The notes beneath the pieces were generated by a model that saw only the letters and a program-made list of their open reading frames with translations, made no database searches and had not been told where the DNA came from. This document shows positions 1,068 to 48,986 of a stretch of DNA of 64,000 nucleotides, one piece after another (positions within the stretch are counted from its first letter, which is position 1; every line of letters begins with the position of its first letter). Both the position numbers and the translations under genes were made by a program. The stretch spans positions 1,920,001-1,984,000 of the forward strand of contig OZ252299.1 in assembly GCA_965250285.1 (NCBI GenBank). Reading direction: 5' to 3'. This DNA comes from Myxococcota bacterium (GTDB lineage Bacteria; Myxococcota_A; UBA9160; UBA4427).

Positions 1068-1095
1068 GTATCGGCCCCGTGTTTCGGGGACTTGA
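1068..1095 (-). promoter_or_regulatory. Sigma28 (FliA)-type promoter for HTH-pilM
   Basis: Minus strand TCAA-N16-GCCGATAC, 58 bp upstream of the GTG. Confidence 0.8.
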
Positions 1096-1254
1096 GACAA
1101 CTGCGCTCCGGTTCGTTGTGTCGCGAATCACGATCCGGGGTAGGCAGCTCACTCGCGAAAGCCCCTTCGTCGAGGGATCGGGCGCCGGCAGCCGATTCGC
1201 AGCCGTCACGCGGCGCGCAAGCGCCTCGACTGCGCAGATTGGTGCATAATCCCC

Positions 1255-1282
1255 TCACCCGGGCGCCGAGTCGTGCCGATGA
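1255..1282 (+). promoter_or_regulatory. Weaker sigma28-type promoter for the PilR2-like gene
   Basis: TCAC-N16-GCCGATGA, 28 bp before TTG 1311. Confidence 0.5.
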
Positions 1283-1310
1283 ACCGGGTTGGAGCGACCG
1301 GAGGACCCCC

Positions 1311-2663
1311 TTGCCCGCACGCATCCTGCTCGCCGATCAACGCCCCGGTCAGCGCGAAGCCGTCGAGGCTGCGCTGAACGCGACCGACTGGCAACTCAGC
1401 GTCGCACCCGACGCCCGACGCGCCCTGGCTCTGCTCGCCGCTGATGGCGCCGAGGTCGCAATCTGTGATCCAGAGATGCCGGGGCTCGACGACTTCGAGC
1501 TCGCACCGCAGCTGCAGCGCAGAGAGCCCGCGCTCCAGATCGTGCTCTGCATCGAACGCGACGATCGCGGCCGCTTCGAGATGGCGCAGCGCCTCGGCGC
1601 AGCGGCGCTGATCGCCTACCCCCTCGACCCCGTCGAGCTCGCGTTCGCGATGGGCGAGACGCAGCGACGAATTCAACATCACCAGCGAACGCGTCTGCTC
1701 GAACGAGACCTGACCCTTGCCGTCGGCGAGAAACCGATCGTGGGCGCCAGTGAATCGATGATCGACCTGCTCGAAGCCATGGAGCGTGCGGCGGGATTCA
1801 AGACGCCGGTGCTGATTCGTGGCGAACGCGGAACGCACAGAGAAGTGCTCGCGCGAGCGATCCATACGCAGTCGCTCAGGCGGGCGGGCCCCTTCGTTGC
1901 GGTGCGCTGCAGCGCTGACACGCCCGACAGCATCGAACGCCAGCTCTTCGATGCGCCCCGTACAGACGGAGACAGCCGTCTGCTCGCGTACGTTCGCGCG
2001 GCCCAGGGCGGCACGCTGTTTCTCGACGAGTTGTCCGCGCTGTCGCCGGGTGCGCAGGCGCGGTTGCTGCACCTCCTCGACCACGAAGAGCTCGTCTCCT
2101 CCGAGACCGGCAAGTCGCACCCGGTCGACGTCCGGGTCATCGCCGCGACCCACTGCGACCTCGACGTGACCGGGAGCGACCCCAATGTCTCGGCCGAGCT
2201 GGCAGACCGACTCGGCGCGGCGCTGCTGAGCGTGCCCCCGCTGCGCGAGCGCGCCGATGACATCCCTCTGCTGATCGACCACGCCGTCGCTCGACTGCGC
2301 GCCGAGCTCGGCGTCGACGTCGAAGGCGTTTCGGATTCGGCCATGGACCGGCTCCGGCACTACGAGTGGCCCGGCAATCTCCGCGAGCTCGAGAACGTCG
2401 TCGAGCGTGCCATGCTGCTCGCGAAGACCGACCGAATCACGCTCCATGAGCTGCCGGCGGCCATCGCGACGGCCGTGCCGGAAGGCGGCGGAGGCCGCAA
2501 CGGCGACTTCTCGCTGCGCCGGGCGCGGCGCTCGTTCGAAGCCGAGATGATCCGTCGCGCTCTGCGCAAGACCGATGGCAACCGCACGCGCGCCGCGCGG
2601 CTCCTCGAGATCAGCCATCGCGCACTGCTCTACAAGATCAAGGAGTTTGGTCTCAGGGACTGA
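1311..2663 (+). CDS. Degenerate sigma54-type response regulator (REC-AAA+-Fis HTH), PilR2-like
   Basis: REC (ICDPEMPG), LFLDE, WPGNLRELEN, HTH GNRTRAARLLEISHRALLYKIKEFG; Walker A altered to GERGTHRE and no GAFTGA; start at TTG after GAGGA. Confidence 0.8.
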   Translation: MPARILLADQRPGQREAVEAALNATDWQLSVAPDARRALALLAADGAEVAICDPEMPGLDDFELAPQLQRREPALQIVLCIERDDRGRFEMAQRLGAAALIAYPLDPVELAFAMGETQRRIQHHQRTRLLERDLTLAVGEKPIVGASESMIDLLEAMERAAGFKTPVLIRGERGTHREVLARAIHTQSLRRAGPFVAVRCSADTPDSIERQLFDAPRTDGDSRLLAYVRAAQGGTLFLDELSALSPGAQARLLHLLDHEELVSSETGKSHPVDVRVIAATHCDLDVTGSDPNVSAELADRLGAALLSVPPLRERADDIPLLIDHAVARLRAELGVDVEGVSDSAMDRLRHYEWPGNLRELENVVERAMLLAKTDRITLHELPAAIATAVPEGGGGRNGDFSLRRARRSFEAEMIRRALRKTDGNRTRAARLLEISHRALLYKIKEFGLRD

Positions 2664-2717
2664 GCGGGTCGAGGTGCCGATCGGCGCGGTGCGTCGCGCG
2701 CCGTTCGCCGCGGGCCG

Positions 2718-4106
2718 TCAGTTCTCAGCGTCGGGATCGTCGAGACCGAGCTTCTCGAGCCGATACCTGAACGATCGAAACGAGATCCCGAGCAACCGGG
2801 CCGCGTGCTTCTTGACCCCGCCCGTCTTGCGAAGCGCTTCACGCAGCAGGCTGCGCTCATACTCGTCGACCAGGGACTCGAGCTTCACGCCCTCCTCGGG
2901 GATCACCACGCGACCGGGTGTCGGGCGCGATTCGGTGACCGTCGGGGGCAGCGCATCCAGCCCGATCACGCCGTCCTGCGAGAGCGCGACGGCACGCTCG
3001 ACCACGTTCTCGAGCTCGCGCACGTTGCCCGGGAACGCGTAGGCGATCAGCTCGCTCATCGCCTCGTCGGTCACGCGCTCGATGGGTCGCCCGAGCTCTT
3101 CGGCGTACTTCTCGACGAAGTGCTGGGCCAGGAGGGGCACATCCTCGCTGCGCTCGCGCAGCGCGGGAAGCGCGACCTGAATCACGTTCAATCGATAGTA
3201 CAGGTCTTCACGGAACCGCCCCTCGGCGACCTCTTGGGCGAGATCCCGGTTGGTGGCCGAGATGATCCGCACATCGACGCGCTTGTCGTTCGTGCCGCCG
3301 ACCCGCCGAATCGTCTTCTCCTGAATCGCACGCAGCAGCTTGACCTGCAGGGCCGGCGAGAGCTCACCGATCTCGTCGAGCAGCAGAGAGCCGCCGTCGG
3401 CCGCCTCGAAGAGCCCCTCTTTGTTCTGAACCGCACCGGTGAAAGAGCCCTTCACGTGGCCGAAGAGCTCGCTCTCGAGGAGGTTCTCGGGGATCGCGCC
3501 GCAGTTGAGCGCGACGAAAGGCTGATCCGATCGGTCGCTCTGATCATGAATCGCGCGGGCGACGAGCTCCTTGCCGGTGCCGCTCTCGCCCGAGATGAGC
3601 ACGTTCGTCTTCGTCCCGGCGACCTGGGCTACCAGGTCGAAGACGCGTTGCATGGCCTCGCCCGAGCCGATGATGTGACGGGGGCGGGCCTGGCTGCGAA
3701 GCTCCGTCTTGAGTCGCTTGTTCTCGCTCGACAGGCGCTTCTTCTCGAGCGCCTTCTCGACGACGATGCGCATCTCGTCGACTTTGAACGGCTTCGTCAC
3801 GTAGTCGTACGCGCCATCCTTCATCGCGGCGATGGCGCTGTCCGTGGTCGCAAAGGCAGTCACGACGATCACCGGCGTCTCGGGCGTCACGTCGCGGGCG
3901 ACCTGGAGCAGATCGAGACCGGTCTTGCCAGGCATCTGCATGTCGGTGATGACGAGATCGATCTCGTCATTCTCGAGCACGAGCGCCGCTGTATCGACAC
4001 TCTCCGCCGTCTCGACTTCGAAACCCTCGCGGCGGAAGAAGATCTCGAGGAACTCGCGCATGCTGCGCTCGTCGTCGACGACCAGAATCTTGTGGGGGTC
4101 GCTCAT
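2718..4106 (-). CDS. pilR: Sigma54-dependent response regulator PilR
   Basis: REC, GESGTGKE, ESELFGHVKGSFTGA, HTH ISFRSFRYRL; directly follows pilS. Confidence 0.88.
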   Translation of the reverse strand: MSDPHKILVVDDERSMREFLEIFFRREGFEVETAESVDTAALVLENDEIDLVITDMQMPGKTGLDLLQVARDVTPETPVIVVTAFATTDSAIAAMKDGAYDYVTKPFKVDEMRIVVEKALEKKRLSSENKRLKTELRSQARPRHIIGSGEAMQRVFDLVAQVAGTKTNVLISGESGTGKELVARAIHDQSDRSDQPFVALNCGAIPENLLESELFGHVKGSFTGAVQNKEGLFEAADGGSLLLDEIGELSPALQVKLLRAIQEKTIRRVGGTNDKRVDVRIISATNRDLAQEVAEGRFREDLYYRLNVIQVALPALRERSEDVPLLAQHFVEKYAEELGRPIERVTDEAMSELIAYAFPGNVRELENVVERAVALSQDGVIGLDALPPTVTESRPTPGRVVIPEEGVKLESLVDEYERSLLREALRKTGGVKKHAARLLGISFRSFRYRLEKLGLDDPDAEN

Positions 4107-5857
4107 CGACTCTCCTCGGCCGGGGATGCGAAGCGCGGCAGCCGCACGCGGAAGGTGGTTCCGAGCCCCAACCGGCTCTCGAGGAGCAGCTCACCGCCAT
4201 GCCGCTCGACGATCGAGTGCACGGTGGCGAGGCCGAGGCCCGTCCCCTCCTCCTTCGTCGTGAAGAAGGGTTCGAAGACTTCGGCCTGAAGCTCGTCGGG
4301 GATGCCCTCGCCCGTATCCGAAACAGCGAGCTCCACCCATCCGGCTTCGCCCCAGACCGCGCCCCTCTCCTCGTTACGGACGTTCGAACGCACGTCTTGA
4401 GCCGCCTCTCGGCCGCCCGACGAGACCGTGACTCTCAGGCAGCCGCCCTTGGACATGGCCTGAACGGCGTTCAAGCAAAGGTTCCAGACCACCTGACGCA
4501 GCTGTCGTTCGTCGCCGAGGGCAGCCGCATCGCCTTCCTCCGGGCCCTCTGCACGAATGTCGGCCGGCAATGTCCCACCGAGCACCTTCAAGACCTCATC
4601 GGCGAGCGGCGCGAGTGCGACCCTCTCACGCAAGGGAGGCGCAGGTCGCGAGAACTGCAGGAAGTCGGTGATCAGCTGATTCAGCCGCTCGGTCTCGCGC
4701 AACACGATATCCATGAGCGCACCGGTCTCGGGGCCTTCCGGGATCTGACCGCTGCTCTTGAGGATCTCGATCGAGCCCGAGATCGACGCCAGCGGGTTCC
4801 GGATCTCGTGCGCGATCTTCGCCGCCATTCCACCGACTGCGGCCATGCGCTCCGAGCGCCGAAGCTCGCGCTCCATCGACACGACCTCGGTGACGTCGGT
4901 GAAGATGATCACGTGCCCGATCGGGTCCGCCGCCTCGTCGCGCAGCACCGATCCCGCCAAACCGAGCCAAAGCTCTTCGCCGCGGTCATTGTCGTACACG
5001 AGGCGTGCCCGATCTGGCTGCAGACCCGGGTCGCTGAGCCGCTCCTTCAACGCCACGTCCGTCGCACCGGGGATCAGATCCTCGAGCGCCACGCCGATCG
5101 CATCGCGCGCGCGCATCCCGGTGATTCGTTCGGCCTCGGGGTTGAACGACGTGATGCGACCCTCGAGATCGATCGTCAGCAGCCCGCTCATGATGCTCTC
5201 GATCGTGCGCTGATAGAGATCCCGCAAGACGCGCAGATCGCTCGTCCGCTGATCGAGCGCGCGCCCCGTTCGGTGAAGCTCGCCCGAGAGCACGCTGGCC
5301 AGCAGCCCGACGAGGTACAGTGCCGCGACGTGCACGCCCCAGGTCGCCACTGCGACCGAGAACGCCGACTCGCTCGCGTAGCCCGACTCGGGCATCGATA
5401 CGAAGCGACCCCCGAACAGCACCGCGCCATAGGCGGCCGATGACAGCGTCGCCGCGACCACAGCGCCGGAGCGCCGAAAGAGCACGGCACCGTACACCGT
5501 CACCAGCACGTACAGGAACGTGAAGATCGACTCGAGACCGCCCGTGAAGTACACGAGCGAAGAGACGATGCCGACGTCCGTCGCAATCTGGAGCGTGACC
5601 GCGAGCCGGTCGCTCCATCGCCTGCGTTCGCCGATCGCGAAGACGACCGTCATGAAGAACGCGGCCGCGACGGTGTAGTAGAGCCCGTTGCGCGACGCGA
5701 CGGGCAGCTCGCGACCCAGCGCATGAAGCCCGAGCGTCACACCGAAGCAGGCGAGGATCACGCCGAGACGTGCGGCGGTGAGCCCCATCAGCCTGCGACG
5801 GTCCTCCGAGACCGACCGGCGCTCGAGCGCACCCCCCTCTTCGCTGAGCGTCCTCAT
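4103..5857 (-). CDS. pilS: Sensor histidine kinase PilS
   Basis: Multiple N-terminal TM helices, PAS, AHEIRNPL, G-boxes DTGEG and GTGLGL; lies between pilC and pilR. Confidence 0.85.
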   Translation of the reverse strand: MRTLSEEGGALERRSVSEDRRRLMGLTAARLGVILACFGVTLGLHALGRELPVASRNGLYYTVAAAFFMTVVFAIGERRRWSDRLAVTLQIATDVGIVSSLVYFTGGLESIFTFLYVLVTVYGAVLFRRSGAVVAATLSSAAYGAVLFGGRFVSMPESGYASESAFSVAVATWGVHVAALYLVGLLASVLSGELHRTGRALDQRTSDLRVLRDLYQRTIESIMSGLLTIDLEGRITSFNPEAERITGMRARDAIGVALEDLIPGATDVALKERLSDPGLQPDRARLVYDNDRGEELWLGLAGSVLRDEAADPIGHVIIFTDVTEVVSMERELRRSERMAAVGGMAAKIAHEIRNPLASISGSIEILKSSGQIPEGPETGALMDIVLRETERLNQLITDFLQFSRPAPPLRERVALAPLADEVLKVLGGTLPADIRAEGPEEGDAAALGDERQLRQVVWNLCLNAVQAMSKGGCLRVTVSSGGREAAQDVRSNVRNEERGAVWGEAGWVELAVSDTGEGIPDELQAEVFEPFFTTKEEGTGLGLATVHSIVERHGGELLLESRLGLGTTFRVRLPRFASPAEESR

Positions 5858-5880
5858 CCGGGGGGAGACTCTCGGGCGGA

Positions 5881-7092
5881 TCAGCCGATCGCGTCGGCGA
5901 TCGTGAAGATCGGAAGGTACATGGCGACGAGGATCGAACCGATCGAGCCACCCATGAACACCATCATGATGGGCTCGAGCATCGAAGTGAGCGCGCCAAC
6001 GGCAGCGTCGACCTCTTCGTCGTAGAAGTCGGCGATCTTGGTCAGCATGATCTCCATCGAACCCGTCTCTTCACCCACGGCCACCATCTGCACCATCATC
6101 CCCGGGAAGACCTTCGAGCCCTGAAGCGGCTCGGCGATGGTCTTGCCCTCTGAGATCGACTGACGCGTCGCCTGGATCTCTTCTTCGATGATCATGTTGC
6201 CGGCGGTTCGAGCGACGATGTCGAGACCATCGAGGATCGGCACACCACTCGAGATCATCGTTCCCAGCGTCCGCGTGAAGCGGGCCACCGCGACCTTCTT
6301 GATGATGTTGCCGAAGATGGGCAGCTTGAGCGCCAGCTGGTCGGTGCGATATCGGAACGGAACGCTGCGCTTCCGCGCCTGGCTGAATGCGACGTAGATC
6401 GTGACGAAGCCACCGATCAGATACTGAATGTAGGCCTGCAGCCAGTTCGAGATCCCGATCACGGTCTGGGTCGGACCAGGCAACGTGCCGCCGAAGTCGG
6501 CGAACATCTTCTCGAAGACCGGAATCACCTTCACGAGGAGGAGCACGATACAAGCGATCGCGATCACCGTAACGGTCGTCGGGTAGACCATCGCGCCCTT
6601 CAGCTGCTTGGCGAGCTTGTCGGCCTTCTCCAGCTGCACCGCCAGGCGGTTGAGGATCGTGTCGAGAATACCGCCGACCTCACCGGCAGCGACCAGGTTC
6701 ACATACAGCGAATCCCAGACGTGCGGATGCTTCGCGAGCGAATCGGCGAATGTGGCGCCCTGCTCGACGTCGTTGCGGACCTCCTTGAGGGCCTTCTTGA
6801 ACGTCGGGTTCTCCTGCTGGTCGCCGAGGATCTGGAGGCACTGAACCAGGGGCAGACCGGCGTCCACCATGACGGCGAACTGCCGCGTGAACACGACGAG
6901 GTCTCGCACCGTCACCTTCGGCTGAAGGAAGGTGAAGATCTCGCTGATGTCCTTGGGCTTCTCCTTGACCTTTCCCGGCACGATGCCCTGGGAGCGCAGC
7001 TGCCCCATCACGGCTTCGGCGGTGGCCGCCTCGAGCTCGCCCTTCTTCATCGCGCCGTCGCGCGTCTTTCCCTGCCAGAGGTAGATGGGCAT
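5881..7092 (-). CDS. pilC: Type IV pilus platform protein PilC
   Basis: FTRQFAVMVDAGLPL, AGEVGGILD, VGEETG, LEPIM...MYLPIF. Confidence 0.95.
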   Translation of the reverse strand: MPIYLWQGKTRDGAMKKGELEAATAEAVMGQLRSQGIVPGKVKEKPKDISEIFTFLQPKVTVRDLVVFTRQFAVMVDAGLPLVQCLQILGDQQENPTFKKALKEVRNDVEQGATFADSLAKHPHVWDSLYVNLVAAGEVGGILDTILNRLAVQLEKADKLAKQLKGAMVYPTTVTVIAIACIVLLLVKVIPVFEKMFADFGGTLPGPTQTVIGISNWLQAYIQYLIGGFVTIYVAFSQARKRSVPFRYRTDQLALKLPIFGNIIKKVAVARFTRTLGTMISSGVPILDGLDIVARTAGNMIIEEEIQATRQSISEGKTIAEPLQGSKVFPGMMVQMVAVGEETGSMEIMLTKIADFYDEEVDAAVGALTSMLEPIMMVFMGGSIGSILVAMYLPIFTIADAIG

Positions 7093-7167
7093 CGAATCAC
7101 CCTCCGCCGGACGAGCCGGCATTCGAACTCAGGAGCGCGCCGTGGCGGCGCCTCCGCGTCAATCGAA

Positions 7168-8247
7168 CTAGCGCGCTGCGCCGCCCGCCTTCATGATCAG
7201 TTGCTTCAGCTCGTCCGTGTCGGGGCTGCGGCCCTCGGCCCGGTCCATGTCGATCATGCGCCGCTGCACCAACGAGGCGAGCGACTGATTCATCGTCTGC
7301 ATGCCGAACTTCTGCTGCCCGACCTGCATCGACGAGTAGATCTGATGGATCTTGTCCTCGCGAATCAGGTTGCGGATCGCGGCATTCGGCACCATGACCT
7401 CGAGCGCCATCGCACGCCCCGGCCCATTCGCCCGCGGCAGCAGCGTCTGGCTCACGACCCCTTCGAGCACGAACGAGAGCTGCTGACGAATCTGCGACTG
7501 CTGATAGGGCGGGAACACGTCGACGATTCGGTTGATCGTCTGCACGGCCGAGTTCGTGTGCAGCGTCGCGAACGCGAGGTGGCCCGTTTCGGCGACGGTC
7601 AACGCCGCCTCGATGGTCTCGAGATCGCGGAGCTCACCGATCAGCACCACATCGGGGTCCTGGCGCAGGATGTACTTCAGAGCTTTCTTGAAGCTCTCGG
7701 TATCGGCGCCGACCTCGCGCTGGTTCACCACGCAGTTCTTGTGCGGGTGCAGGTACTCGATCGGGTCCTCGACCGTGACGATGTGTTCGTTTCGCTCGGT
7801 GTTGATCTTGTCGATCATCGTCGCCAGCGTGGTCGACTTGCCCGAGCCGGTCGGCCCGGTGACGAGAATGAGCCCGCGCGGCTTCTCCGAGAGCTCGGCC
7901 ATGACCGGCGGCAGCCCGAGATCCTCGAACGTCATGATCTTGAATGGGATGGCACGAAAGACGCCAGCGACGTTGCCGCGCTGAATGAAGACGTTGCCCC
8001 GGAAGCGGGAGAGCTTTTGCACACTGAAGGAGAGATCGAGCTCGTTCGTCTCCTCGAACTTGTGCTTCTGCGCGTCGGTCAGCACCGAGTAGCAGAGCTG
8101 CTTGGTCTCCTGCGGCGAGAGCGGCGGCATCTTGAGCGGGCACAGCTTGCCGTCGATTCGAAGCTGCGGCGGGGTCCCCGTCGTGATGTGGAGATCACTC
8201 GAGCCCTTCTCGATCATTGCCTTGAGCAGCTGGTGCATGTTGGCCAT
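7168..8247 (-). CDS. pilT: Pilus retraction ATPase PilT
   Basis: SDLHIT, GPTGSGKSTT, LRQDPD, ETGHL, AIRNLIRE; start MANMHQLL at 8247. Confidence 0.96.
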   Translation of the reverse strand: MANMHQLLKAMIEKGSSDLHITTGTPPQLRIDGKLCPLKMPPLSPQETKQLCYSVLTDAQKHKFEETNELDLSFSVQKLSRFRGNVFIQRGNVAGVFRAIPFKIMTFEDLGLPPVMAELSEKPRGLILVTGPTGSGKSTTLATMIDKINTERNEHIVTVEDPIEYLHPHKNCVVNQREVGADTESFKKALKYILRQDPDVVLIGELRDLETIEAALTVAETGHLAFATLHTNSAVQTINRIVDVFPPYQQSQIRQQLSFVLEGVVSQTLLPRANGPGRAMALEVMVPNAAIRNLIREDKIHQIYSSMQVGQQKFGMQTMNQSLASLVQRRMIDMDRAEGRSPDTDELKQLIMKAGGAAR

Positions 8248-8285
8248 GGTGAATCGATTCCTTCGCGGTCCGGCGCCTGCCCGAC

Positions 8286-9983
8286 CTAGTCGATCGTCGA
8301 AACGCGGAAGACTTCGCTGAGCGTCGTGACGCCTTCCATCATCTTCTTCAACGCCGATCGGCGGAGGGACTGCATCCCACCACGGACGGCCTCGCGCTTG
8401 ATCTCGGCGGCCGAAGCACCGTTCAGAACGAACTCCTTGAGCTCGTCGGTCATGACCATGACCTCGTAGATGGCGACTCGGCCCTTGAAGCCGGTCTCCG
8501 AACAGTTGCTGCAGCCCGCGCCCTTCTTCGGCTGGAACGACGTCGACTCCTCCTCGGAGAGGCCGGCCGCGACCAGGTCGTCCTTGAGGACCTCGGGGTC
8601 GTCGGTCACACACTCGGGACAGATCCGGCGAGCCAGACGCTGGGCCACGATGCAGTTGACGGCGGACGAAACGAGGAAGGGCTCGATGCCCATGTTGAGC
8701 AGGCGGTTGATCGTGGACGGCGCGTCGTTCGTATGCAGCGTCGAGAGCACCATGTGGCCGGTGAGCGCGGCCTTGACCGCGATCTCGGCCGTCTCGAAGT
8801 CACGAATCTCACCGACCATGATGATGTCGGGGTCCTGACGCAGGAACGATCTGAGCGCTGCAGCGAAGTTCAGGCCGATGTCTTCGTGCATCTGTACCTG
8901 GTTGATGCCGCCGAGATTGAACTCGACGGGATCTTCGGCCGTCGACAGGTTCTCGCCGGGGGTGTTGAGCTCGGCGAGCGCCGAGTAGAGCGTGGTCGTC
9001 TTACCCGAACCGGTCGGGCCGGTCACCAGCACCATGCCGAACGGCAGATGAATGGCCCCCTGAAAGTCGGTGAGCTGGTGCTCCTCGAAACCGAGCTTGG
9101 TCATGTCGAGCTGAAGATTGCTCTTGTCGAGGAGACGCAGGACCACCTTCTCGCCGAAGAGCGTCGGCAGCACCGAGACACGAAAGTCCATTTCGCGGCC
9201 CTTACCGAGCTTCAGCTTGATGCGGCCATCCTGCGGCAGACGCCGCTCGGCGATGTCGAGCGCAGACATGATCTTGAGTCGAGAAGTGATCGCGTTCTTG
9301 AGCTTGAGCGGCGGCTTCATCACCTCGTAGAGGACGCCGTCGATGCGATATCGCACCCGAAACGACTTCTCGTACGGCTCGATGTGAATATCCGACGTGT
9401 TTCGCTTGATCGCGTCGGTCAGGATCAGGTTGACGAGCTTGACGACCGGCGCATCCTCGGCCTCCTTGCCCGCCTCGGCCGCGTTGAATTCGTCTTCGGC
9501 CTCGACGACGTCGATCCCGTCATCGTCGAAGCCGGCCATGACGTCCTCGAGCACGTCGGCCTGCTCATAGTGCGCTTCGATCGTGGCGCGGATCGTCTCC
9601 TCGGAGGCAACGACCGGCTGGATGTTGTACCCGGTGAGGAACTTGATGTCGTCGAGCGCGAAGATGTTCGACGGATCGGGGGTCGCCAGGATCAGCGTCG
9701 AGCCCGCGCGGTTCACGGGCACCACGGTGTGCTTGAGCGCGACTTCTTCGGGAATGAGCTCGATGACTTCGGGGTCGATCTCGAAGTCCGAGAGGCTGAT
9801 CGAAGGCACGCCGTACTGCTTGGCGACGAAGTCGGTGAGCTCTCCCTCTTCGAGGAAGCCGAGCTTCGTGATCTGCGCGCCGAGACGTTCGCCCTTCGAC
9901 GCGGCCTCTGCGCGCGCCTTCTGAAGCTGCTCGGTCGAGAGCAGATTTTCTTTGACCAGGAGCTCGCCAATGCGCTCGTTCAC
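8286..9983 (-). CDS. pilB: Pilus assembly ATPase PilB
   Basis: MshEN-like RIGELLV N-terminus, SDIHIEP, GPTGSGKTTT, RQDPD, Zn-binding CxxC pairs. Confidence 0.96.
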   Translation of the reverse strand: MNERIGELLVKENLLSTEQLQKARAEAASKGERLGAQITKLGFLEEGELTDFVAKQYGVPSISLSDFEIDPEVIELIPEEVALKHTVVPVNRAGSTLILATPDPSNIFALDDIKFLTGYNIQPVVASEETIRATIEAHYEQADVLEDVMAGFDDDGIDVVEAEDEFNAAEAGKEAEDAPVVKLVNLILTDAIKRNTSDIHIEPYEKSFRVRYRIDGVLYEVMKPPLKLKNAITSRLKIMSALDIAERRLPQDGRIKLKLGKGREMDFRVSVLPTLFGEKVVLRLLDKSNLQLDMTKLGFEEHQLTDFQGAIHLPFGMVLVTGPTGSGKTTTLYSALAELNTPGENLSTAEDPVEFNLGGINQVQMHEDIGLNFAAALRSFLRQDPDIIMVGEIRDFETAEIAVKAALTGHMVLSTLHTNDAPSTINRLLNMGIEPFLVSSAVNCIVAQRLARRICPECVTDDPEVLKDDLVAAGLSEEESTSFQPKKGAGCSNCSETGFKGRVAIYEVMVMTDELKEFVLNGASAAEIKREAVRGGMQSLRRSALKKMMEGVTTLSEVFRVSTID

Positions 9984-10099: not shown

Positions 10100-10127
10100 T
10101 TATCGGAAGGTGATCGGAGCGACTTTA
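10100..10127 (-). promoter_or_regulatory. Sigma28-type promoter for pilB-pilT-pilC-pilS-pilR
   Basis: Minus strand TAAA-N16-TCCGATAA, 117 bp upstream of the pilB start; the -35 overlaps the upstream TAA stop. Confidence 0.8.
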
Positions 10128-22848: not shown

Positions 22849-22852
22849 CGAG

Positions 22853-37446: not shown

Positions 37447-37523
37447 GCGCTCGGTTCCGACCCGCCGCCTGGCCTCGCATCGTCACCTGCGAATCCATGC
37501 GGCGCGGCCCCTGGAGCGAGCGA

Positions 37524-39167
37524 TCACGCCACCGCGTCCTGATCGGGGGGCTCGAACGGCAAGGCAATCTCGAACGTCGTGCCTTCGCCGACCGTGCTCT
37601 CGACCCGCATGGTGCCCCCGTGACGCTCGACGATCGCGTACGAGAGCGAGAGACCGAGCCCCGTCCCCTCGCCCGGCTCCTTCGTGGTGAAGAAGGGATC
37701 GAAGATGCGATCGACGTGGGTCGGCTCGATGCCGACGCCCGTATCCGAGATCCGCACGAGCACACCCTCGTCGTGCGCCCGCGTCTCGATGCGGATCAGC
37801 CCCGGCTGGCTCGTGTCAAGCCGGGCCTCGATCGCCTGGTAGGCGTTCACGAGCAGGTTCATGAAGACCTGCTTGAGCTGCATGGGGTAACAGAGCAGCG
37901 GCGGCAGCGCGCCGTAGTCTTTCTCGAGCAGCGCAGAGTGACGCATCATCGTCCACACGATGTGGGCCGTGCTGTCGACGCATGCGTTGAGATCGGCGCC
38001 GTCGAGCTCACCCGTGTCCTGATGCGAGAAGTCGCGCAGATCCTGCACGATGTGACGAATGCGTTCGGCCCCTTCCTGGCTCTCGCGGACCGCCTGGCCG
38101 AGGTCGTCGCGCAGAAAGTCGAGATCGATCTCCTGTTTCACGACCTCGAGTGCCGCCGATGCGTCCTTGGCGGCGCCTTCGTCCCCCGCGTCGACCGCGG
38201 CCTTCAGTCGATCGATCGCGGGCCAGAGTCGGTCGAGATCGCCCAGGTACTCGGCCAGCTGAACCAGGTTCGCGTGGATGAAGCCCGTCGGGTTGTTGAT
38301 CTCGTGCGCAACACCGGCCGCGAGCTGGCCGATCGAAGCCATCTTCTCGGACTGCAACACCTGGCGCTGCAGCTGCTTCAGCTCGGACAGGTCTTCGACG
38401 ATCAGCACGGCGCCGCGCGGCCCGATCGCCTCGGCCTGCATCGGCGCGCAAGACAGCCCGACCGGCCGCCGGGCCCCGCCGGGCAGCAGCAGCAGCGACT
38501 CGCGCCCGGGCGCGCCTTCGAGACCATCGATCACCTGCTGGACCCAATCGAGGGCGGCGGCGTCGCCCAGCAGCGACGCCAGTGCGCGCCCTTCGACGCC
38601 GCCCCGCTCGACCTCGAGAATGTGCTCGGCGGCCGGGTTGGCGTACCGCACGATCGCATCGCCATCGAGGACGAGGAGCCCACTGCCCATGTATTCGACG
38701 ACGCTCGAGCTGAAACGTTCGAGCGCGGCGATGCGTTGGCGCGCCCGGCGGCGCTCGCGCTCGGGACGGTGCCGCTGGATCTGTTCGAGGACGACGACCG
38801 CGAGGCCGCCTTCGGAGTCATCTACGTCGGCGCGCACGCAATCGGCGGCGCCGGCTCGAAACGCCTGCACCGCGAGCTCGCCTTCGCCCTCGTAGAGGAC
38901 GACCGTCGGCGGCCCAGCCGAGCCCACGCCGTCGATCACGGTCTTCCAATCCGCGATGTCGACGCAGTCGAGCAGGATCAAATCGGTCGCGGCTTGCCGG
39001 GCGGCCTCGACGCAGGCCTCGGCCGTCGTGACCGCGACGAGCTCGAGCTCGGCACCGATGCGCGTCAATGCATCGCGCGGATCGGAATCAAGGCGCGCGC
39101 GCGGGTCCTCGGCGCCGCGGGGGCGCTCGAAGAGCACGATGCGCACGGTCGTCGACGGAGCGTCCAT
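37524..39167 (-). CDS. Cytoplasmic histidine kinase (degenerate REC-PAS-HisKA-HATPase)
   Basis: DLILLD receiver remnant, [38 protein letters not shown]. Confidence 0.9.
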
Positions 39168-39224
39168 ACGGAGGACTCCTGGCGAACCGGGTGGGCAGGC
39201 TCTCTGTCGGGGGGAGTCGGGAAG

Positions 39225-39596
39225 CTACCCCAGGGTCTTCGGCGCCCCAACCCCGCGCGGCTCCGCCGCGTCGTCGAACGCGTGGGCCTGATCGGCCGCG
39301 TCGTCCCCCGATGCGGACACGGCGGCCGGGCTGCGCAGCTCGGCGACGTTGATGCCGTGCTTGCCCGCCTTGCGGTAGAAGGTGCTGCGCCCGATCCCGA
39401 GCAGTCTCGCGGCCTCGGAGGCATCCCCCCACGTCTCGATCAGGGCGCGCTCCAGCGCGGCCTTCTCGTACGCATCGAGCGAGAGCGGAAGGTTCCGCTG
39501 GAGCCACTCCGGCGCCGCCAGCGCCGAAGCCGGGGCATCGGGTGCCGGTGTGGCTGCGGGGCTCGGGCCCGAGCTGGATGCGTCGCGTTCCGCCAT
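39225..39596 (-). CDS. Stand-alone Fis-type HTH protein
   Basis: LSLDAYEKAALERAL...GDASEAARLLGIGRSTFYRK with no AAA+ domain. Confidence 0.75.
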   Translation of the reverse strand: MAERDASSSGPSPAATPAPDAPASALAAPEWLQRNLPLSLDAYEKAALERALIETWGDASEAARLLGIGRSTFYRKAGKHGINVAELRSPAAVSASGDDAADQAHAFDDAAEPRGVGAPKTLG

Positions 39597-39603: not shown

Positions 39604-39631
39604 GCATCGGCAGATGTTCGGAACGCCTTGA
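39604..39631 (-). promoter_or_regulatory. Sigma28-type promoter for Fis-HK-RR
   Basis: Minus strand TCAA-N16-GCCGATGC, 7 nt before ATG 39596. Confidence 0.72.
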
Positions 39632-39727: not shown

Positions 39728-41119
<1,392 letters not shown>

Positions 41120-42006: not shown

Positions 42007-42022
42007 TGGCACGGACCCTGCT
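42007..42022 (+). promoter_or_regulatory. Sigma54 -24/-12 promoter of fliA
   Basis: TGGCACG-GACC-CTGCT with GG-N10-GC spacing, 103 bp before the ATG. Confidence 0.78.
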
Positions 42023-42124
42023 CTACCCAGCTGCGAGCGCGCCCGAGTCGGTCAGGGGGGATCGAGGAACGGCGCCCACAGAGGTCGTGAGCGGATGCGG
42101 AACGACGAGGAGAAAGAGGGGACG

Positions 42125-42889
42125 ATGGAAGCTCTGATGCAGGAAGCGCGCGAGGCACACGGTGAGATCCCGGCCGATCTGAAGGAACAGATCGTCCTCG
42201 AGCACAGCCCGCTGATTCGATACATCGTGAACCGGATCGCGGTTCGCCTGCCCTCTCACATCGACCTCGACGACCTGTACAACACCGGCGTGATCGGCCT
42301 GATGGACGCCATCGACAAGTTCGACAACGAGAAGAACTGCAAGTTCAAGACCTACGCGGAGTTCCGGATCAAGGGCGCGATCCTCGACCAGCTCCGCTCG
42401 CTCGACTGGGTGCCCCGCTCGGTGCGCCAGAAGAGCCGCAAGCTCGAGCGGGCCTACGGAGAGGTGGAGCAGCGCCTCGGTCGAAGCGCCACCGAAGAAG
42501 AGGTGGCCGACAGCCTCGGCCTCGAGATCGACAAGTTCCACGTCCTGCTCAACCAGGTGCGCGGCATCTCGCTGGTCAACCTCGAAGAGATTCGAGGCAA
42601 CGGCCAGGACGGCGACCGCACCGGCACCTTCGCCGACATCATCGAGGACGTGAACGCGGAGAACCCCTTCGCGTCGCTCAAGCTCCTCGAAACGAAGCAC
42701 GTCATCAGCGACACCATCGCGACGCTCCCCGAGAAGGAGCGCCTGGTGATCTCGCTCTACTACTACGAAGATCTCAACATGAAGGAGATCGGGAACATCC
42801 TCGGCATCACCGAGAGCCGCGTGTGTCAGATCCACACCAAGTCGGTGATGCGCCTTCGCTCGAAGCTGAAGGGGATGGTCGACCGCTGA
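42125..42889 (+). CDS. fliA: RNA polymerase sigma factor FliA/WhiG (sigma28)
   Basis: LPSHIDLDDL..GVIGLMDA, FKTYAEFRIKGAILDQLRSLDWVPRSVR, LYYYEDLNMKEIG..ITESRVCQIH. Confidence 0.95.
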   Translation: MEALMQEAREAHGEIPADLKEQIVLEHSPLIRYIVNRIAVRLPSHIDLDDLYNTGVIGLMDAIDKFDNEKNCKFKTYAEFRIKGAILDQLRSLDWVPRSVRQKSRKLERAYGEVEQRLGRSATEEEVADSLGLEIDKFHVLLNQVRGISLVNLEEIRGNGQDGDRTGTFADIIEDVNAENPFASLKLLETKHVISDTIATLPEKERLVISLYYYEDLNMKEIGNILGITESRVCQIHTKSVMRLRSKLKGMVDR

Positions 42890-42998: not shown

Positions 42999-43727
42999 TC
43001 AGCCCTTTTCGTAGCGAACGACCATGGTCGTCACGTTGTCGAAGCCGCCGCGATCGTTGGCCGCGGCGACGAGCTGCTCGCACGCCTGCTGCGGATCCTC
43101 TTCATCGAGCAGGAGGCCGGCGATCTCGGGATCCTCGAGATGGGTGGTCAAGCCGTCAGAGCACATCACGAAGGCGTCCCCTGGCTCGGGCGTCAGCTCG
43201 GCGAGGTCGGGCATCACGGTCGAGCGCACACCCAGGGCGCGCGTCAGCACGTGGCGATGCGGATGCTCGCGCGCCGCTTCTTCGCTGATCTGCTGCCGAC
43301 GCAGCATCTCACCGACGACCGAGTGATCCTGGGTGAGGCAGCGAATGCGGCCGCCACGAACCAGGTAGGCACGGCTGTCGCCGACGTGACCCAGGGCCAC
43401 GCGCTCCTCCGTGACGAGCAGCGACACCATGGTCGTGCCCATCCCCTCGAGCGAGGCGTCGCGGTTCGCGGCGGTGAAGATCTCGCGGTTCGAGCAGGCG
43501 AAGGCCTGTCGCAGCTTCTCGGCCAGCGGGACGGTTGCGCCCTGGAGCGTATCGACGGCGCGAATCGCAGCCTCGGCGGCCATCTCGCTGGCCACCTGCC
43601 CCGCGCGGTGCCCGCCCATTCCGTCCGCGACCAGATACAGGCCCAGCTGGGGCGCCATCGCGTAGCGATCCTCGTTGGCCTGACGGCGGCGGCCCACGTC
43701 GGTGCTCGCTGCGGCGCGGAGAATCAA
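42999..43727 (-). CDS. PP2C-family Ser/Thr phosphatase (Stp1-like)
   Basis: RQANED, VADGMGGH, MGTT, HVGDSR, CSDGL, GGFDN. Confidence 0.95.
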   Translation of the reverse strand: MILRAAASTDVGRRRQANEDRYAMAPQLGLYLVADGMGGHRAGQVASEMAAEAAIRAVDTLQGATVPLAEKLRQAFACSNREIFTAANRDASLEGMGTTMVSLLVTEERVALGHVGDSRAYLVRGGRIRCLTQDHSVVGEMLRRQQISEEAAREHPHRHVLTRALGVRSTVMPDLAELTPEPGDAFVMCSDGLTTHLEDPEIAGLLLDEEDPQQACEQLVAAANDRGGFDNVTTMVVRYEKG

Positions 43728-43791: not shown

Positions 43792-43819
43792 CCATCGGTG
43801 CATGAGCCCCACAGCTTGA
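43792..43819 (-). promoter_or_regulatory. Sigma28-type promoter for PP2C
   Basis: Minus strand TCAA-N16-ACCGATGG. Confidence 0.65.
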
Positions 43820-43865: not shown

Positions 43866-43893
43866 TCAATCTCGGCAACTCCGGGGCCGATGA
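43866..43893 (+). promoter_or_regulatory. Sigma28-type promoter for romR
   Basis: TCAA-N16-GCCGATGA, 69 bp before ATG 43963. Confidence 0.75.
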
Positions 43894-43962
43894 TACGCAC
43901 CAGAGGTACGCTTGTGCGGGTGCGGGGGTTCGCGCCCGCCGCGCGCCATCCGGGGGGATCCA

Positions 43963-45813
43963 ATGCCGAAGACGCTCTTGCTCGCCGACGACAGCGTCGT
44001 CATCCAGAAGCTCGTCGGGCTCAGCTTCGCCAACGAGGACGTCGAGCTGACGACCACGGACAATGGCGACGACGCCATCACCAAGGCCCGCGAGCTGAAG
44101 CCCGACCTCGTCCTTGCCGACGTCGTGATGCCCGGCAAGAACGGCTACGAGGTGTGCGAGACGATCAAGGCCGATCCCCAGCTCGCGCACGTCCCCGTGC
44201 TGCTGCTGACCGGCACCTTCGAAGCGTTCGACGAGAATCGCGCGCGGAGCGCCGGCAGCGACGGCCACATCACGAAGCCGTTCGAGGCCCAGGCGCTCGT
44301 CGACCGCGTGAACGAGCTGCTGGCCCAGGCCCCGGCGGCCCCGCAGCTCGCAACGACCACCCCGACGCTCGACGGCCCGGCCGTGACGCGCATCGCCGAC
44401 ATGCCGCCGGCCGAGAACGACGATTCGTTCGACTTCTTCGAGGATGCTTCCGATCCGCTCGCCCAGGTCGACGCCTCGGGCGAGGTGGCCTCGCCCCCGC
44501 CGCTTCCGGCATCGCCCTCGCCGCTCGAGCCGGCCGCACCCGTCGCGACGCCGGCAGCCGACGCCGGGGCGCCGTCCGCTGCGGCCAGCGTTCTGCCGCC
44601 GCTCTCGGGGGCCGACGACGCCGCGTTGATGCCCGATTCTCCGGCCGCCGCCACACCGCCGATCGACGATCTGGCCTTCGACGCGGATGACCTGACGCCG
44701 CCCGATCCCGCTGCGACGACGGTGCACCTGACCGACGAGGCCGAGCCGGCGTCGGCCGCCGGTGCCGCGCCGACGCGCGACGACGACCTGCTGCTCGGCG
44801 ACGAGGCGGCGACCTGGAACGACGATCTCGAGATCGGCCCGGAGCCGATCCGATCGCCGGCCGGCGACGCCACGCAGCTCTCCGACGATCTGTTCCCCGA
44901 TCCGCCGGCAGCGGCGGCGGCCCCCGTCGATCTCGACGCGGCGATCGCTGAGGACACCGGCGCGAGCGCGCCGGCCTCGGCGCTGGTCAGTGATGGCGAC
45001 CGGTCGAGCGACGCAATCGCATTCGGCGAAGCGTCCGCGCCCGCAGCGCCCGATCCGATGAAGACCATGCTGGCCGACGATCTGTTCAGCGATGCCGAGC
45101 CCGCCGCGCCCGAGACGCCCGCGGCAACGCCCGCCGACCTCGACCTCGACCCGACCTCGGCCCCGGCCGAGAACGTCGCGAGCGACTTCGAGGTGTCGTC
45201 CTCGGACCTCGAGACCAGCATCCCCGCCATGCCGCCGCTCGAGACCGACGCGACCGCCGACGAGCCGTTCTCGCCGCCGACACCGCCCACCCGCACTGAG
45301 CCGAGTGCTTCTGCGCCGCCCGAGCCGGTCACCTCGCCGAAGCCCGAACCGATCGAGATCGAGACGAGCACCGACACGACCGACGATTTCCAGATCTCCG
45401 ACGGTCTGCTCGCAGGCGCTCCGCCGGCGCACGAGCCGACCGACTCGAGCTCGGCGCTCGACGCCGCGCCGGAGGCGCTTGGCACCCCGCAGCAGGCGCT
45501 CGACGCCACGCCGCAGGCGATTGACACCCCGCCGGAGGCGCTTGACGCGACGCCGCAGGCGCTCGACGCCACGCCGCAGGCGCTCACTCCGGCTCCGCCC
45601 GACCTCGGCCCCGATCTGACGCCGATCATGCGCGAGCGTGTGCACGAGACGCTCGAGCGCGTGGCTTGGGAGGCCTTTGCCGACCTCTCCGACACGATCG
45701 TCAAGCAGGTCGTCGAGAAGGTCGAGCAGGTCGCGTGGGAGGTGATCCCGCAGATGGCCGAAGCAGCGATCAAGGAAGAGATCCGCCGCATGAAGGGCGA
45801 GAACGACGAGTAG
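43963..45813 (+). CDS. romR: RomR-like polarity response regulator
   Basis: N-terminal REC (LLADDS, LADVVMPG, KPF), ~440-aa Pro/Ala/Asp-rich linker, C-terminal EQVAWEVIPQMAEAAIKEEI motif typical of RomR. Confidence 0.8.
   Translation: MPKTLLLADDSVVIQKLVGLSFANEDVELTTTDNGDDAITKARELKPDLVLADVVMPGKNGYEVCETIKADPQLAHVPVLLLTGTFEAFDENRARSAGSDGHITKPFEAQALVDRVNELLAQAPAAPQLATTTPTLDGPAVTRIADMPPAENDDSFDFFEDASDPLAQVDASGEVASPPPLPASPSPLEPAAPVATPAADAGAPSAAASVLPPLSGADDAALMPDSPAAATPPIDDLAFDADDLTPPDPAATTVHLTDEAEPASAAGAAPTRDDDLLLGDEAATWNDDLEIGPEPIRSPAGDATQLSDDLFPDPPAAAAAPVDLDAAIAEDTGASAPASALVSDGDRSSDAIAFGEASAPAAPDPMKTMLADDLFSDAEPAAPETPAATPADLDLDPTSAPAENVASDFEVSSSDLETSIPAMPPLETDATADEPFSPPTPPTRTEPSASAPPEPVTSPKPEPIEIETSTDTTDDFQISDGLLAGAPPAHEPTDSSSALDAAPEALGTPQQALDATPQAIDTPPEALDATPQALDATPQALTPAPPDLGPDLTPIMRERVHETLERVAWEAFADLSDTIVKQVVEKVEQVAWEVIPQMAEAAIKEEIRRMKGENDE
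45454..45585 (+). repeat. 21-bp coding tandem repeat x6 (ALDATPQ-like) in the RomR linker
   Basis: GCGCTCGACGCCACGCCGCAG and variants. Confidence 0.9.
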
Positions 45814-46806: not shown

Positions 46807-47819
46807 GCGAAGGCGCAAGGCAGGTATTGGCGGCGCTGCGGTCGGCGGCCGGCGAAGCGCGCTCGGGCGAAGCGCTGTCGAGCGAGCTCGGCGTGTCACG
46901 AGCCCAGATCTGGAAGCACGTGAGCGCGCTGCGCCGACGCGGCTATGAGATCGGGGGCGAGCCCGGGGGCGGCTATCGCCTCGAATCGGTCCCCGATCGG
47001 CTGTATCCAGAAGAGCTCGGGGTCGGGCGTACAGGCCGCTGGCTCGGGGCCGACATCGAGCATCTCGACGAGACCGACTCGACGAACCGCGTGGCGATGG
47101 AGCGCGGGCGCGCCGGCGCGGCCCACGGCTTCGCAGTGGTCGCCGAAGGCCAGACGGCGGGCCGGGGCCGGCTCGGCCGCAGCTTCTATTCGCCGCCGAA
47201 CCTGAACCTCTACACGTCGGTCGTGCTGCGCCCCGACCTGCTCGTGCCGGACGCGTCGAGCCTGATCCTGGTCGCCGGCGTCGCGGTCGCCGACGCCATC
47301 GCCCAGACGATCGGCGACGACGACGCCGTCTCGATCAAATGGCCCAACGACGTTCAGCTCGAGGGTCTCAAGACATCCGGCATCCTGCTCGAGCTCGCTG
47401 CCGAAGAGACTCGGGTGGACTTCGTGGTCATGGGCATCGGCGTCAACCTGAACGTCGAACGCGACGTGTTTCCGGACGAGTTCCGGCACCTCGCCACGAG
47501 CCTGCGCTCGCACACCGGCGACACCGTCGACCGGGCGGCCTTCACCCGCCGTCTCTTCGACACGCTCGAGGATGCGCTCGAGACCCACGAACAGGGCGGC
47601 TTCGACGCCCTGCGCCCCCGCTTCGACCGCCGATTTCGCATGCCCGGCCAGCGCGTCGAGGTGCGGGGGGTCGGCACCCGCGACGGCGAGGTGACGGCCG
47701 GCGTCGTGCGCGGCCTCGCCGACGACGGCGCGCTCGAGCTCGAAGACGAAGCCGGCCGGCTCACGCGCGTGCTCGCGGGCGACGTGACGGTGGTGAAACC
47801 CGACGAGGCCGAGGCGTGA
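46803..47819 (+). CDS. birA: Bifunctional biotin ligase/repressor
   Basis: N-terminal HTH, DSTN, QTAGRGRLGR, KWPND, GIGVN. Confidence 0.95.
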   Translation: MSEGARQVLAALRSAAGEARSGEALSSELGVSRAQIWKHVSALRRRGYEIGGEPGGGYRLESVPDRLYPEELGVGRTGRWLGADIEHLDETDSTNRVAMERGRAGAAHGFAVVAEGQTAGRGRLGRSFYSPPNLNLYTSVVLRPDLLVPDASSLILVAGVAVADAIAQTIGDDDAVSIKWPNDVQLEGLKTSGILLELAAEETRVDFVVMGIGVNLNVERDVFPDEFRHLATSLRSHTGDTVDRAAFTRRLFDTLEDALETHEQGGFDALRPRFDRRFRMPGQRVEVRGVGTRDGEVTAGVVRGLADDGALELEDEAGRLTRVLAGDVTVVKPDEAEA

Positions 47820-48064
47820 GGGGCGCCCGCCGCGAAGCGCGCGAAAGCGGGCGGCCCCGATGACGCGCCCGCCTCACGTCTCGCGCAGGCGCGGTACGCT
47901 CCCGATGGGCGGTCGAGCACGCGAGCGAACCGGCGCCGCGCAGCGACCCCGCCCAGGCATCGCCCGACACCGAGACCGGCCTCGCGCGGCCGCGCAGCCC
48001 ACGGCGGCGCGGGCGTCGCCGCCGGCCTTCGCCTGATCTCCGTCCCGCCCGAAAGGCCCTTCGC

Positions 48065-48853
48065 GTGAGCGACCCGACGCTGCTCGTTATCGATATCGGC
48101 AACACCAACGTGACGCTCGGCGTCTTCGACTACGAGGGAGAGGAGGTCGACCTCTCGCATCACTGGCGCGTCTCGACCCACCGCGAGCAGACGTCCGACG
48201 AGCTGTCGATCACGCTTCACGCCCTGTTCGACCACGAGGATCGGTCGGTCGCGGACGTGACCGACATCATCGTGTCGAGCGTGGTCCCGCCCGTCGTGCC
48301 GGTCTGGGAGCGCGTCTGCACCAAGCTCTTCGGCAAGCCGCCGCAGGTCGTCGGCCCGGGGATGCGCACCGGGATGCCCGTCCGGTACGAGAACCCCCAC
48401 GAGGTCGGCGCAGACCGCATCGTGAACTCGGTGGCGGCCTTCGAGCTCTACGGCGGTCCGATCATCGCCGTCGACTTCGGCACGGCCACGACGTTCGATT
48501 GTGTCTCAGAGAAGGGTGAGTACCTGGGCGGGGTGATCTGCCCGGGGATCCACATCTCGATGGAGGCCCTCTTCGAGCGCGCTTCGAAGCTGCACCGGGT
48601 CGAGATCGCCCGTCCCAAGAGCGTGATCGGCAAGACGACGACGGGCGCGCTGCAGAGCGGACTGCTCTACGGCTACGCCGGGCTCGTCGACGCGATGGTC
48701 GAGCGGATCCGCCCCGAGATCGGCGGCGACGCCAAGGTGATCGCCACCGGCGGGCTGGCCCGCCGCATCGCGAACGAGACCTCTTCGATCGAGAACGTGG
48801 CGCCGTTCCTGACGCTCGAGGGGCTGCGGATCCTCTTCGAGAAGAACCGCTAG
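48065..48853 (+). CDS. coaX: Type III pantothenate kinase
   Basis: IDIGNT, VGADR, VDFGTATT, ATGG. Confidence 0.96.
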   Translation: MSDPTLLVIDIGNTNVTLGVFDYEGEEVDLSHHWRVSTHREQTSDELSITLHALFDHEDRSVADVTDIIVSSVVPPVVPVWERVCTKLFGKPPQVVGPGMRTGMPVRYENPHEVGADRIVNSVAAFELYGGPIIAVDFGTATTFDCVSEKGEYLGGVICPGIHISMEALFERASKLHRVEIARPKSVIGKTTTGALQSGLLYGYAGLVDAMVERIRPEIGGDAKVIATGGLARRIANETSSIENVAPFLTLEGLRILFEKNR

Positions 48854-48958
48854 CCGCCGCGCGGTCGGCGGGCGCCCCACGGCCTCTCCCCGCGCACAGA
48901 GCCGCTCAGGGCCGCTCAGGGCCACCTCGTGCCGCTTCGCGAGCGCGCAACTTCCGTC

Positions 48959-48986
48959 TCAATCTCATGCCCGTTTCGGCCGATGT
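48959..48986 (+). promoter_or_regulatory. Sigma28-type promoter for the hypothetical-mglA-like-GAF operon
   Basis: TCAA-N16-GCCGATGT, 61 bp before GTG 49048. Confidence 0.72.

Follow-up and report, generated by a model that had tools for sequence, protein, structure and literature searches.

A 64,000-nt stretch of the genome of a Myxococcota bacterium from class UBA9160 (contig OZ252299.1, positions 1,920,001 to 1,984,000; hereafter the window) carries genes for type IV pili and cell polarity close to a gene for a sigma28 factor of the FliA/WhiG family, and several of them are preceded by the same bipartite motif. This motif most likely acts as a sigma28-type promoter, T(A/C)AA-N15/16-GCCGATAA, since it is oriented and placed before gene starts, and its reader is very probably the FliA encoded in the window. 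We also consider it likely that this FliA, the only one in the genome, uses the motif as its promoter and serves as a global sigma factor that works independently of flagella in support of a piliated, polarised state of the cell. The class has been given the name Vahlivitia (10.64898/2026.07.10.737566).

A sigma28-type motif and its sites in the window

Genes were called over the entire single-contig 6.25-Mb genome (95% complete) with a dicodon model of our own, which gave 5264 genes and 87% coding sequence. The pattern T[CA]AA-N16-[GTA]CCGAT has 78 matches in this genome. Of these, 62 are intergenic, compared with an intergenic share of the genome of 13%, and 60 lie on the same strand as a start and no more than 200 nt before it; a single intergenic match in the whole genome was found on the wrong strand only. 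Chance, or an equal frequency in coding and wrong-strand positions, thus does not account for the motif. When the spacer was varied, facing intergenic sites numbered 60 at spacer 16, 15 at spacer 15 and 5 at spacer 17, and 0–2 among 9–49 matches each at spacers 12–14 and 18–20. Upstream regions contain the motif in 60 of 4406 cases (shuffle mean 1.5, maximum 5 in 30 shuffles) and, within the window, in 6 of 41 (0 in shuffles).

The initial annotation had listed eight sites in the window, and on re-reading the sequence we found the coordinates, the strand and the 16-nt spacer of each to be correct. A position weight matrix (PWM), trained on sites outside the window only and then applied to it, gave scores of 14.2–21.7 for the six strong sites, 15.9 for the site of the so-called pilR2-like gene and 12.6 for that of dacB. 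The units named coaBC, rsmD, ald, sat and rnr, names that we took over as given, had been described as free of the motif, in agreement with their PWM scores (6.9, 7.8, 2.6, 0.1 and -3.6). Because enrichment by PWM is partly circular (the matrix was iterated on facing sites), our claims about the motif rest on the spacer and shuffle counts and on the relatives. The region is also covered by contigs of two sequencing runs, without sequence differences. The features of the window are as follows; all promoters are putative.

1..717, minus strand: 5' part of pilM, whose unit runs on outside the window to pilN, O, P and Q (PilM_2, PilN, PilO, PilP, Secretin)
741..1010, minus: Cro/C1-type helix-turn-helix (HTH) protein, first gene of the pilMNOPQ unit (HTH_3; in 35/37 class genomes)
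1068..1095, minus: sigma28-type promoter TCAA-N16-GCCGATAC of HTH-pilMNOPQ (PWM 21.5)
1255..1282, plus: weak, conserved sigma28-type site TCAC-N16-GCCGATGA
1311..2663, plus: receiver (REC)-AAA-HTH protein with a degenerate sigma54-activator domain (Sigma54_activat 106.8 bits, compared with 246.8 in neighbours)
2718..9983, minus: pilB-pilT-pilC-pilS-pilR (TIGR02538 and TIGR01420 above cut-off; T2SSF, 6TM_PilS, NtrC-like)
10100..10127, minus: sigma28-type promoter of pilB, TAAA-N16-TCCGATAA; relatives often have the textbook TAAAG-N15-GCCGATAA
25181..25208, minus: dacB site, rejected as a conserved member
37075..39596, minus: Fis-type HTH-only protein (39225-39596), PAS histidine kinase (HK) and single-domain response regulator (RR), by domain search
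39604..39631, minus: sigma28-type promoter of the Fis-HK-RR unit (PWM 21.7)
39803..41119, plus: intact sigma54 activator, REC-AAA-HTH with GAFT loop (domain and motif check)
42007..42021, plus: sigma54-type -24/-12 site before fliA, absent from the initial annotation
42095..42889, plus: FliA/WhiG-family sigma28 factor
42999..43727, minus: PP2C phosphatase (domain search)
43792..43819, minus: sigma28-type promoter of PP2C
43866..43893, plus: sigma28-type promoter of romR
43963..45813, plus: RomR-like protein with REC domain, long linker and Glu-rich C-terminus
48959..48986, plus: sigma28-type promoter of the cluster that follows (score 21.0)
49048..53669, plus: 355-aa unknown protein, MglA paralogue with C-terminal extension, GAF/GGDEF-like protein (domain and profile searches)

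The gaps of at most 76 nt suggest that pilB-pilT-pilC-pilS-pilR forms one unit. The name RomR for 43963..45813 is our assumption from its REC domain and C-terminal architecture; the protein had no match among solved structures. Three of the listed sites needed correction. Of 23 orthologue loci, only that of the source genome has the proposed dacB site. The site before the pilR2-like gene is conserved, but the gene itself lacks the ELFG/GAFTGA motif. Likewise, the site of the "mglA-like operon" stands, but the gene codes for a remote paralogue of MglA (E 1.7e-33), and the true mglBA lies outside the window behind a site of its own (score 22.7). The 355-aa protein next to the paralogue (49048-50115) is conserved, matches no Pfam or NCBIfam family and falls into unnamed Atlas clusters from Myxococcota and Acidobacteriota; its position makes it a candidate polarity factor.

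The position of start codons behind the motif is also informative. Among 122 intergenic spacer-16 sites, an ATG stands 8–9 nt past the -10 8-mer in 14 cases, compared with 3.0 expected (p=3e-6), and the same count gave no peak at spacers 13, 15 and 19. The fliC promoter of P. aeruginosa has GCCGATAA at -15 to -8 (PMC12784957), so that +1 would be expected at the ATG peak and such mRNAs would be leaderless. The Fis-type gene 39225-39596, with its ATG 8 nt past the -10 box, is predicted to be one of them. At the same place, many relatives have a full-length REC-AAA-HTH activator; truncation to the Fis-only form could make a repressor out of an activator.

Conservation and extent of the proposed regulon

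Sites at the pil and polarity genes recur in relatives, which as kin are not independent of each other. The pilB site is present in 50/50 loci (30/30 of the same family, source genome included, and 20/20 from nine other families), never on the wrong strand, and the mglB site in 30/30 loci, all from family f1. The romR site occurs in 66/66 loci at spacer 16 and in 0/66 at spacers 13 and 19; this number comes from a position-fixed pattern, as the first PWM gave only 13/66 at a score of at least 14 because relatives use GAC/GTC-GAT there. The PP2C site was found in 53/66 loci by the strict pattern and 63/66 by PWM, and the HTH-pilM site in 29/30 class loci, a pilM match adjoining in all 30. A relaxed pattern recovered the pilR2-like site in 14 of 15 scorable loci (15/30 were not scorable). 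At a PWM score of at least 14, the Fis-HK-RR site is seen on the same strand in 43/63 related loci and that of the MglA-paralogue cluster in 24/43, some within the upstream gene. Two neighbour genes, which carry our own unchecked labels nadC-like and coaX-like, have sites in 0/54 and 0/49 loci. In five genomes from outside the class, a promoter-like site was found at 0/5 type IVa pilus (T4aP) pilB loci (one loose match lies 2 nt from the start), and a single weak romR-like match had no site. One mglB match (L279, G065:C9:247186-247671) contains an in-frame TAG.

Across the genome, 167 candidates score at least 14, are intergenic and face a gene. At this threshold 34 wrong-strand sites compare with 191 on the right strand, so up to about a fifth of the candidates may be false, and we predict a regulon of about 130–170 promoters. 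The initial annotation had FliA transcribe the pilus machine and the polarity genes. The sole FliA, the sites and the relatives argue for this, but the scope was too narrow, as the regulon appears to be global. We annotated 122 genes, comprising 106 of the 108 scoring at least 17 outside the window and 16 neighbours or controls. Against solved MglA, MglB and MglC, the polarity homologues of the genome reach E values of 6e-106, 5e-62 and 2e-15; the unit holding mglC is preceded by a weak site (14.8). An sgmX-like TPR gene also has a site; its protein matches the SgmX model at E 1.8e-64 with 218.6 bits, well short of the 1800-bit cut-off. Other candidates outside the window are a second pilT-family ATPase, minor pilins, methyl-accepting chemotaxis proteins, a CheA/CheW cluster, signalling genes (PilZ, MshEN, GGDEF, EAL, FHA, kinases) and cell-shape or cytoskeletal genes (bactofilin, divIVA and a stand-alone mreB). 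In families picked once the hits were known, a direct site precedes 7/14 GGDEF, 8/17 PilZ, 4/5 FHA and 4/7 N-methyl pilin genes, compared with 3.2% of all genes; the control families gave 1/44 (P450) and 1/37 (AMP-binding).

The genome has two mreB paralogues. The stand-alone copy with the FliA site (G000:C1:3416239-3417276) is missing from G111 and G069, and the other (C1:181009-182046), which heads mreBCD-pbp2-rodA-like genes, is not among the regulon candidates. The mreB site was seen in 23/30 loci, and 2 of the 7 misses are the operon-type paralogue in genomes without the stand-alone gene. Four HisKA_7TM-type genes (G000:C1 2920004, 3996416, 4795692 and 5676448) encode paralogous 7TM-PAS histidine kinases of about 600 aa and have a strong site each, 21–64 nt upstream.

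FliA, its own control and the flagellum

FliA scores 278.5 bits against TIGR02479 (cut-off 189.6) and 253.4 against NF005413 (cut-off 201), and has Pfam regions r2, r3 and r4 without region 1.1, which places it in the FliA/WhiG family. The source genome, with 20 sigma70-r2 matches, has no second FliA and no other paralogue above 30% identity. Mean identity over 80 loci is 85%, above any neighbour gene, and relatives at 81–98% identity belong to Myxococcota or Deltaproteobacteria. R108, S241 and Q245 are invariant in 98/98 class rows (some from duplicate genomes). With an inferred numbering offset, they align to R97, S224 and Q228 of P. aeruginosa, which contact bases; Q112 stands at the backbone contact R101, as in WhiG. 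All 98 class rows have ESRVCQ in the recognition helix, whereas residue 244 is S in E. coli, P. aeruginosa and WhiG; linking this class signature to TCAA tolerance or redox control would be speculation.

The sigma54-type site upstream of fliA (42007-42021) recurs in 76/76 related loci with 300 nt upstream, with no wrong-strand case, and rpoN is present in the source genome. The intact activator at 39803..41119, whose real start probably lies a little further upstream, is the best match present in 70/80 fliA loci and a candidate activator of fliA. Autoregulation was rejected, as a FliA site precedes fliA in 0/79 loci. An RsiG–WhiG switch was not found either: in the source genome, the only one searched, the best hit to the RsiG family PF22802 reached 14.2 bits (cut-off 27). 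A hidden Markov model built on FlgM of family f10, from the sister order, gave a best E value of 0.23 there. Second fliA copies (65–80% identical) occur at unrelated loci (L117, L119, L127, L128), and in G084 and G097 they too are accompanied by a sigma54 site. The window holds another sigma54-type site at 22434-22448 (+), before a 111-aa membrane protein/SLT pair (22513-23548).

The class survey covered 130 genomes at least 90% complete. FliA is above cut-off in 122 of them and flagellin is present in 57; FliA is kept in 67 of the 73 genomes without flagellin. It is also above cut-off in many other families of the phylum (109/201). The source genome, in which the initial annotation had left the presence of flagella to be checked, has no flagellin, FliG, rod protein or FlgM match. 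The spacer-16 count exceeded a same-frame spacer-13 control (a reversed-pattern control was dropped as too lenient) in 125/130 genomes, with a median excess of +33 both with and without flagellin. G111 and G113 (2.2 and 2.8 Mb) lack FliA, pilB, romR and mglB and show no excess (11 compared with 17, and 25 compared with 36).

The two orders differ in the type of site before flagellin. All 18 genomes of family f10 have FlgM, encoded at the fliA/romR locus, and the flgM-like gene has its own FliA-type site in 6/6 loci read. The best flagellin of f10 has a FliA-type site in 7/8 genomes (two mismatches allowed) and no sigma54 site, and G008 has a FliA-type site at flgJ. Ten of the 18 genomes with FlgM-domain genes (L085-L090, L116, L118, L120) have no flagellin match, and FlgM there would have to be removed without flagellar export. 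In the order of the source genome the canonical FliA–FlgM cascade is not found: FlgM is present in 0/112 genomes, and the best-scoring flagellin has a sigma54 site in 22/26 rows, or 19/21 genomes (one gene is counted twice). In the flagellar cluster of G110, flgF, fliC-fliD-fliS and one further operon each follow a sigma54 site, none of the structural flagellar genes follows a strict FliA site, and fliA and flgM are not at their Geobacter positions.

The pilin appears to be under sigma54 as well. A sigma54 site, but no FliA site, precedes the candidate for the major pilin (C1:3269475-3270056), and across the class sigma54 sites stand at 17/29 of the best pilA loci. In a flagellar cascade, FliA acts late and serves the filament subunit. 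Of the initial suggestion that such a cascade is reused, the pilus and polarity targets are probable, but not its order: here FliA sites stand before the genes of the machine and before pilSR, and filament subunits mostly have sigma54 sites. Two pilin-like genes have both types of site (G000:C1:5772533/5772584 and 6081801/6081850), and three secreted 339-aa paralogues in tandem (G000:C1:1450264, 1451792, 1453248) have a sigma54-type site each.

Competing explanations and known systems

We propose that the sigma54 activator next door turns on fliA through the conserved -24/-12 site. The FliA holoenzyme would then read T[C/A]AAG-N15-GCCGAT at about 130–170 promoters and directly transcribe, we infer, the pil and polarity genes. 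Its predicted targets are pilB-T-C-S-R, HTH-pilMNOPQ, the second pilT-family ATPase, minor pilins, romR, mglBA, the sgmX-like gene and the MglA paralogue, together with GGDEF/EAL/PilZ/MshEN genes, the chemosensory cluster, divIVA, bactofilin and the stand-alone mreB. PilSR made by FliA would let PilR fire the sigma54 promoter of pilA, so that the machine would be made before the filament. The Fis-only protein may feed back, and the pili would move the cell; surface motility of this organism is predicted from gene content. The distribution of the genes, read without a tree, suggests that fliA and flgM moved from a flagellar cluster to the romR locus. The sister order would have retained FlgM and FliA-type flagellin promoters. 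In the order of the source genome, loss of FlgM and transfer of flagellin to sigma54 would have allowed flagella to be lost repeatedly while FliA was retained. More tentatively, FliA may in this whole order have been detached from the flagellum as the master switch of a polarised, pilus-driven state that takes in the T4aP machine, RomR/MglABC, the MreB paralogue and the cyclic di-GMP (c-di-GMP) network, with pilin and flagellin under sigma54. Acting without either known anti-sigma factor, it would imply a new control route: the sigma54 activator of fliA might be opposed by the Fis-only protein, or a novel anti-sigma factor might be at work.

Several observations weigh against the proposed global role of FliA. 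FliA-type sites were found at 6/29 pilA loci and at one flagellin of the order (G021), the flagellin promoter counts cover best-scoring flagellins only, and the enrichment families were chosen after the fact. A flagellar activator operon has a FliA-type site in G075 and a looser one in G115, and none in G110; given the site in G075, the uncoupling of FliA from flagella is not total. The motif excess is kept in G126 (54 compared with 11), which has no fliA match, and in G116 (29 compared with 10), which has only the C-terminal 78 residues; both are likely assembly gaps. The G116 fragment (L132, G116:C13:88212-88445) abuts another gene, through a deletion or a misassembly. Conversely, genus g10 and G019 have FliA and little or no motif excess (-14 to +8). 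The regulon of g10 is contracting: at the three loci seen (L111-L113), fliA is kept, PP2C lost, romR eroded or lost, and mglB diverged (51–65%) or not found. Finally, the candidates topA, acs, amtB and rpsO lie outside any motility theme.

Such candidates would suit a FliA that reads the motif as a near-constitutive second vegetative sigma factor for envelope, shape and signalling genes, without any switch to a motile state. The candidates topA, divIVA, the mreB paralogue and acs fit this idea, as do the conservation of FliA above any neighbour, the missing FlgM and RsiG matches and the report that FliA is essential in Bdellovibrio (PMC5430801). We nevertheless regard it as unlikely, because fliA lies behind a sigma54 site of a type that needs an activator in 76/76 loci, because the site is on the stand-alone mreB and not on that of the mreBCD operon, and because G111 and G113 live without FliA. 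It is less probable still that FliA simply drove flagella and pili together in an ancestor and that the source genome just lost its flagella. Co-regulation, named as an alternative in the initial annotation, does describe the sister order, where f10 has FliA-type sites at flagellin, flgJ and pilB, and flagellin persists in 57/130 class genomes; it is true for a deeper ancestor. For the source genome's own order it is largely refuted by the sigma54 sites of the best-scoring flagellins (19/21 genomes), by the G110 cluster with its three sigma54 sites, no strict FliA site at structural genes and neither fliA nor flgM, and by the absence of FlgM (0/112). That the motif has another reader, be it a group 2 or extracytoplasmic function sigma factor or a transcription factor, with the position of fliA incidental, is highly improbable. 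The 20 sigma70-r2 matches offer such readers and the -35 box is mostly TCAA rather than TAAA, but the motif fits the FliA/WhiG consensus (-35 T(C/A)A, -10 GCCGA, PMC13595943), stands at flgM and flagellin in f10, loses its excess together with FliA in G111 and G113 and shows the leaderless ATG peak.

The preferred reading of FliA as a flagellum-independent regulator of pili and polarity has precedents. In Rubrobacter, an RsiG-(c-di-GMP)-WhiG switch places pili under a sigma28-family factor (PMC8325347), and WhiG control of pili is predicted widely in Actinomycetota (PMC13595943). Those systems resemble ours in having a sigma28-family factor predicted at type IV pilus operons and at diguanylate cyclase and phosphodiesterase genes, with the same consensus. 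They differ in that 12 promoters supported by transcription start sites and RsiG control are described for Rubrobacter, compared with about 130–170 predicted sites and no RsiG match here; the sigma54 site before the sigma gene and the polarity-module targets are, going by that description, found here only. Bdellovibrio FliA is described as global and essential, with TTAAG-N16-CCGATA at 92/140 promoters, Tad (IVb) pili included (PMC3627812, PMC5430801). It is likewise a global regulator, in the attack phase, but Bdellovibrio is flagellated and its FliA drives flagellin, whereas here the IVa machine and the polarity genes carry the sites. We take Bd2761, Bd3734 and Bd2492 to be its RomR, MglA and SgmX-like proteins. 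By the expression table, rather than the promoter table, these three are growth-phase specific and pilB is scored silent (PMC3627812); pilA is described as non-FliA (PMC5430801).

In Geobacter, fliA is downstream of an RpoN promoter, pilA is RpoN/PilR-dependent, and the flagellar cluster includes fliA and flgM (PMC2725144). The control of fliA and pilA is thus alike, but here fliA stands at the romR locus, and the class flagellar clusters inspected lack fliA and flgM. The SigJ/SigF hormogonium cascade of Nostoc uses one sigma factor (about 100 promoters, with a J-box at pilB) for the pilus machine and another for pilA (PMC6495340). The split between machine and pilin is alike, with different sigma factors and a different motif, and the logic is convergent. 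In Myxococcus xanthus, the sigma factor SigF is said to be needed for S-motility (cited in PMC9548883).

Sigma28 control of pili was thus already known from Rubrobacter WhiG and Bdellovibrio FliA; what would be new here are the RomR/MglAB targets and the hand-over of flagellin. Our search of open PMC and bioRxiv yielded no description of FliA sites at RomR/MglAB, of such a hand-over or of such a regulon in UBA9160, and nothing on the transcriptional control of the RomR/MglAB module. Across this class, which is known from metagenomes, one conserved promoter type ties the module to the pilus machine, and the 130–170 or so genes predicted to be co-regulated, many of them uncharacterised, are candidate pilus or polarity factors. 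The present reading also predicts an unknown way of controlling sigma28. The class has kept both sides of the hand-over, FlgM with FliA-type flagellin promoters in one order and sigma54-type promoters without FlgM in its sister, which suggests a way for a motility sigma factor to persist after loss of the flagellum.

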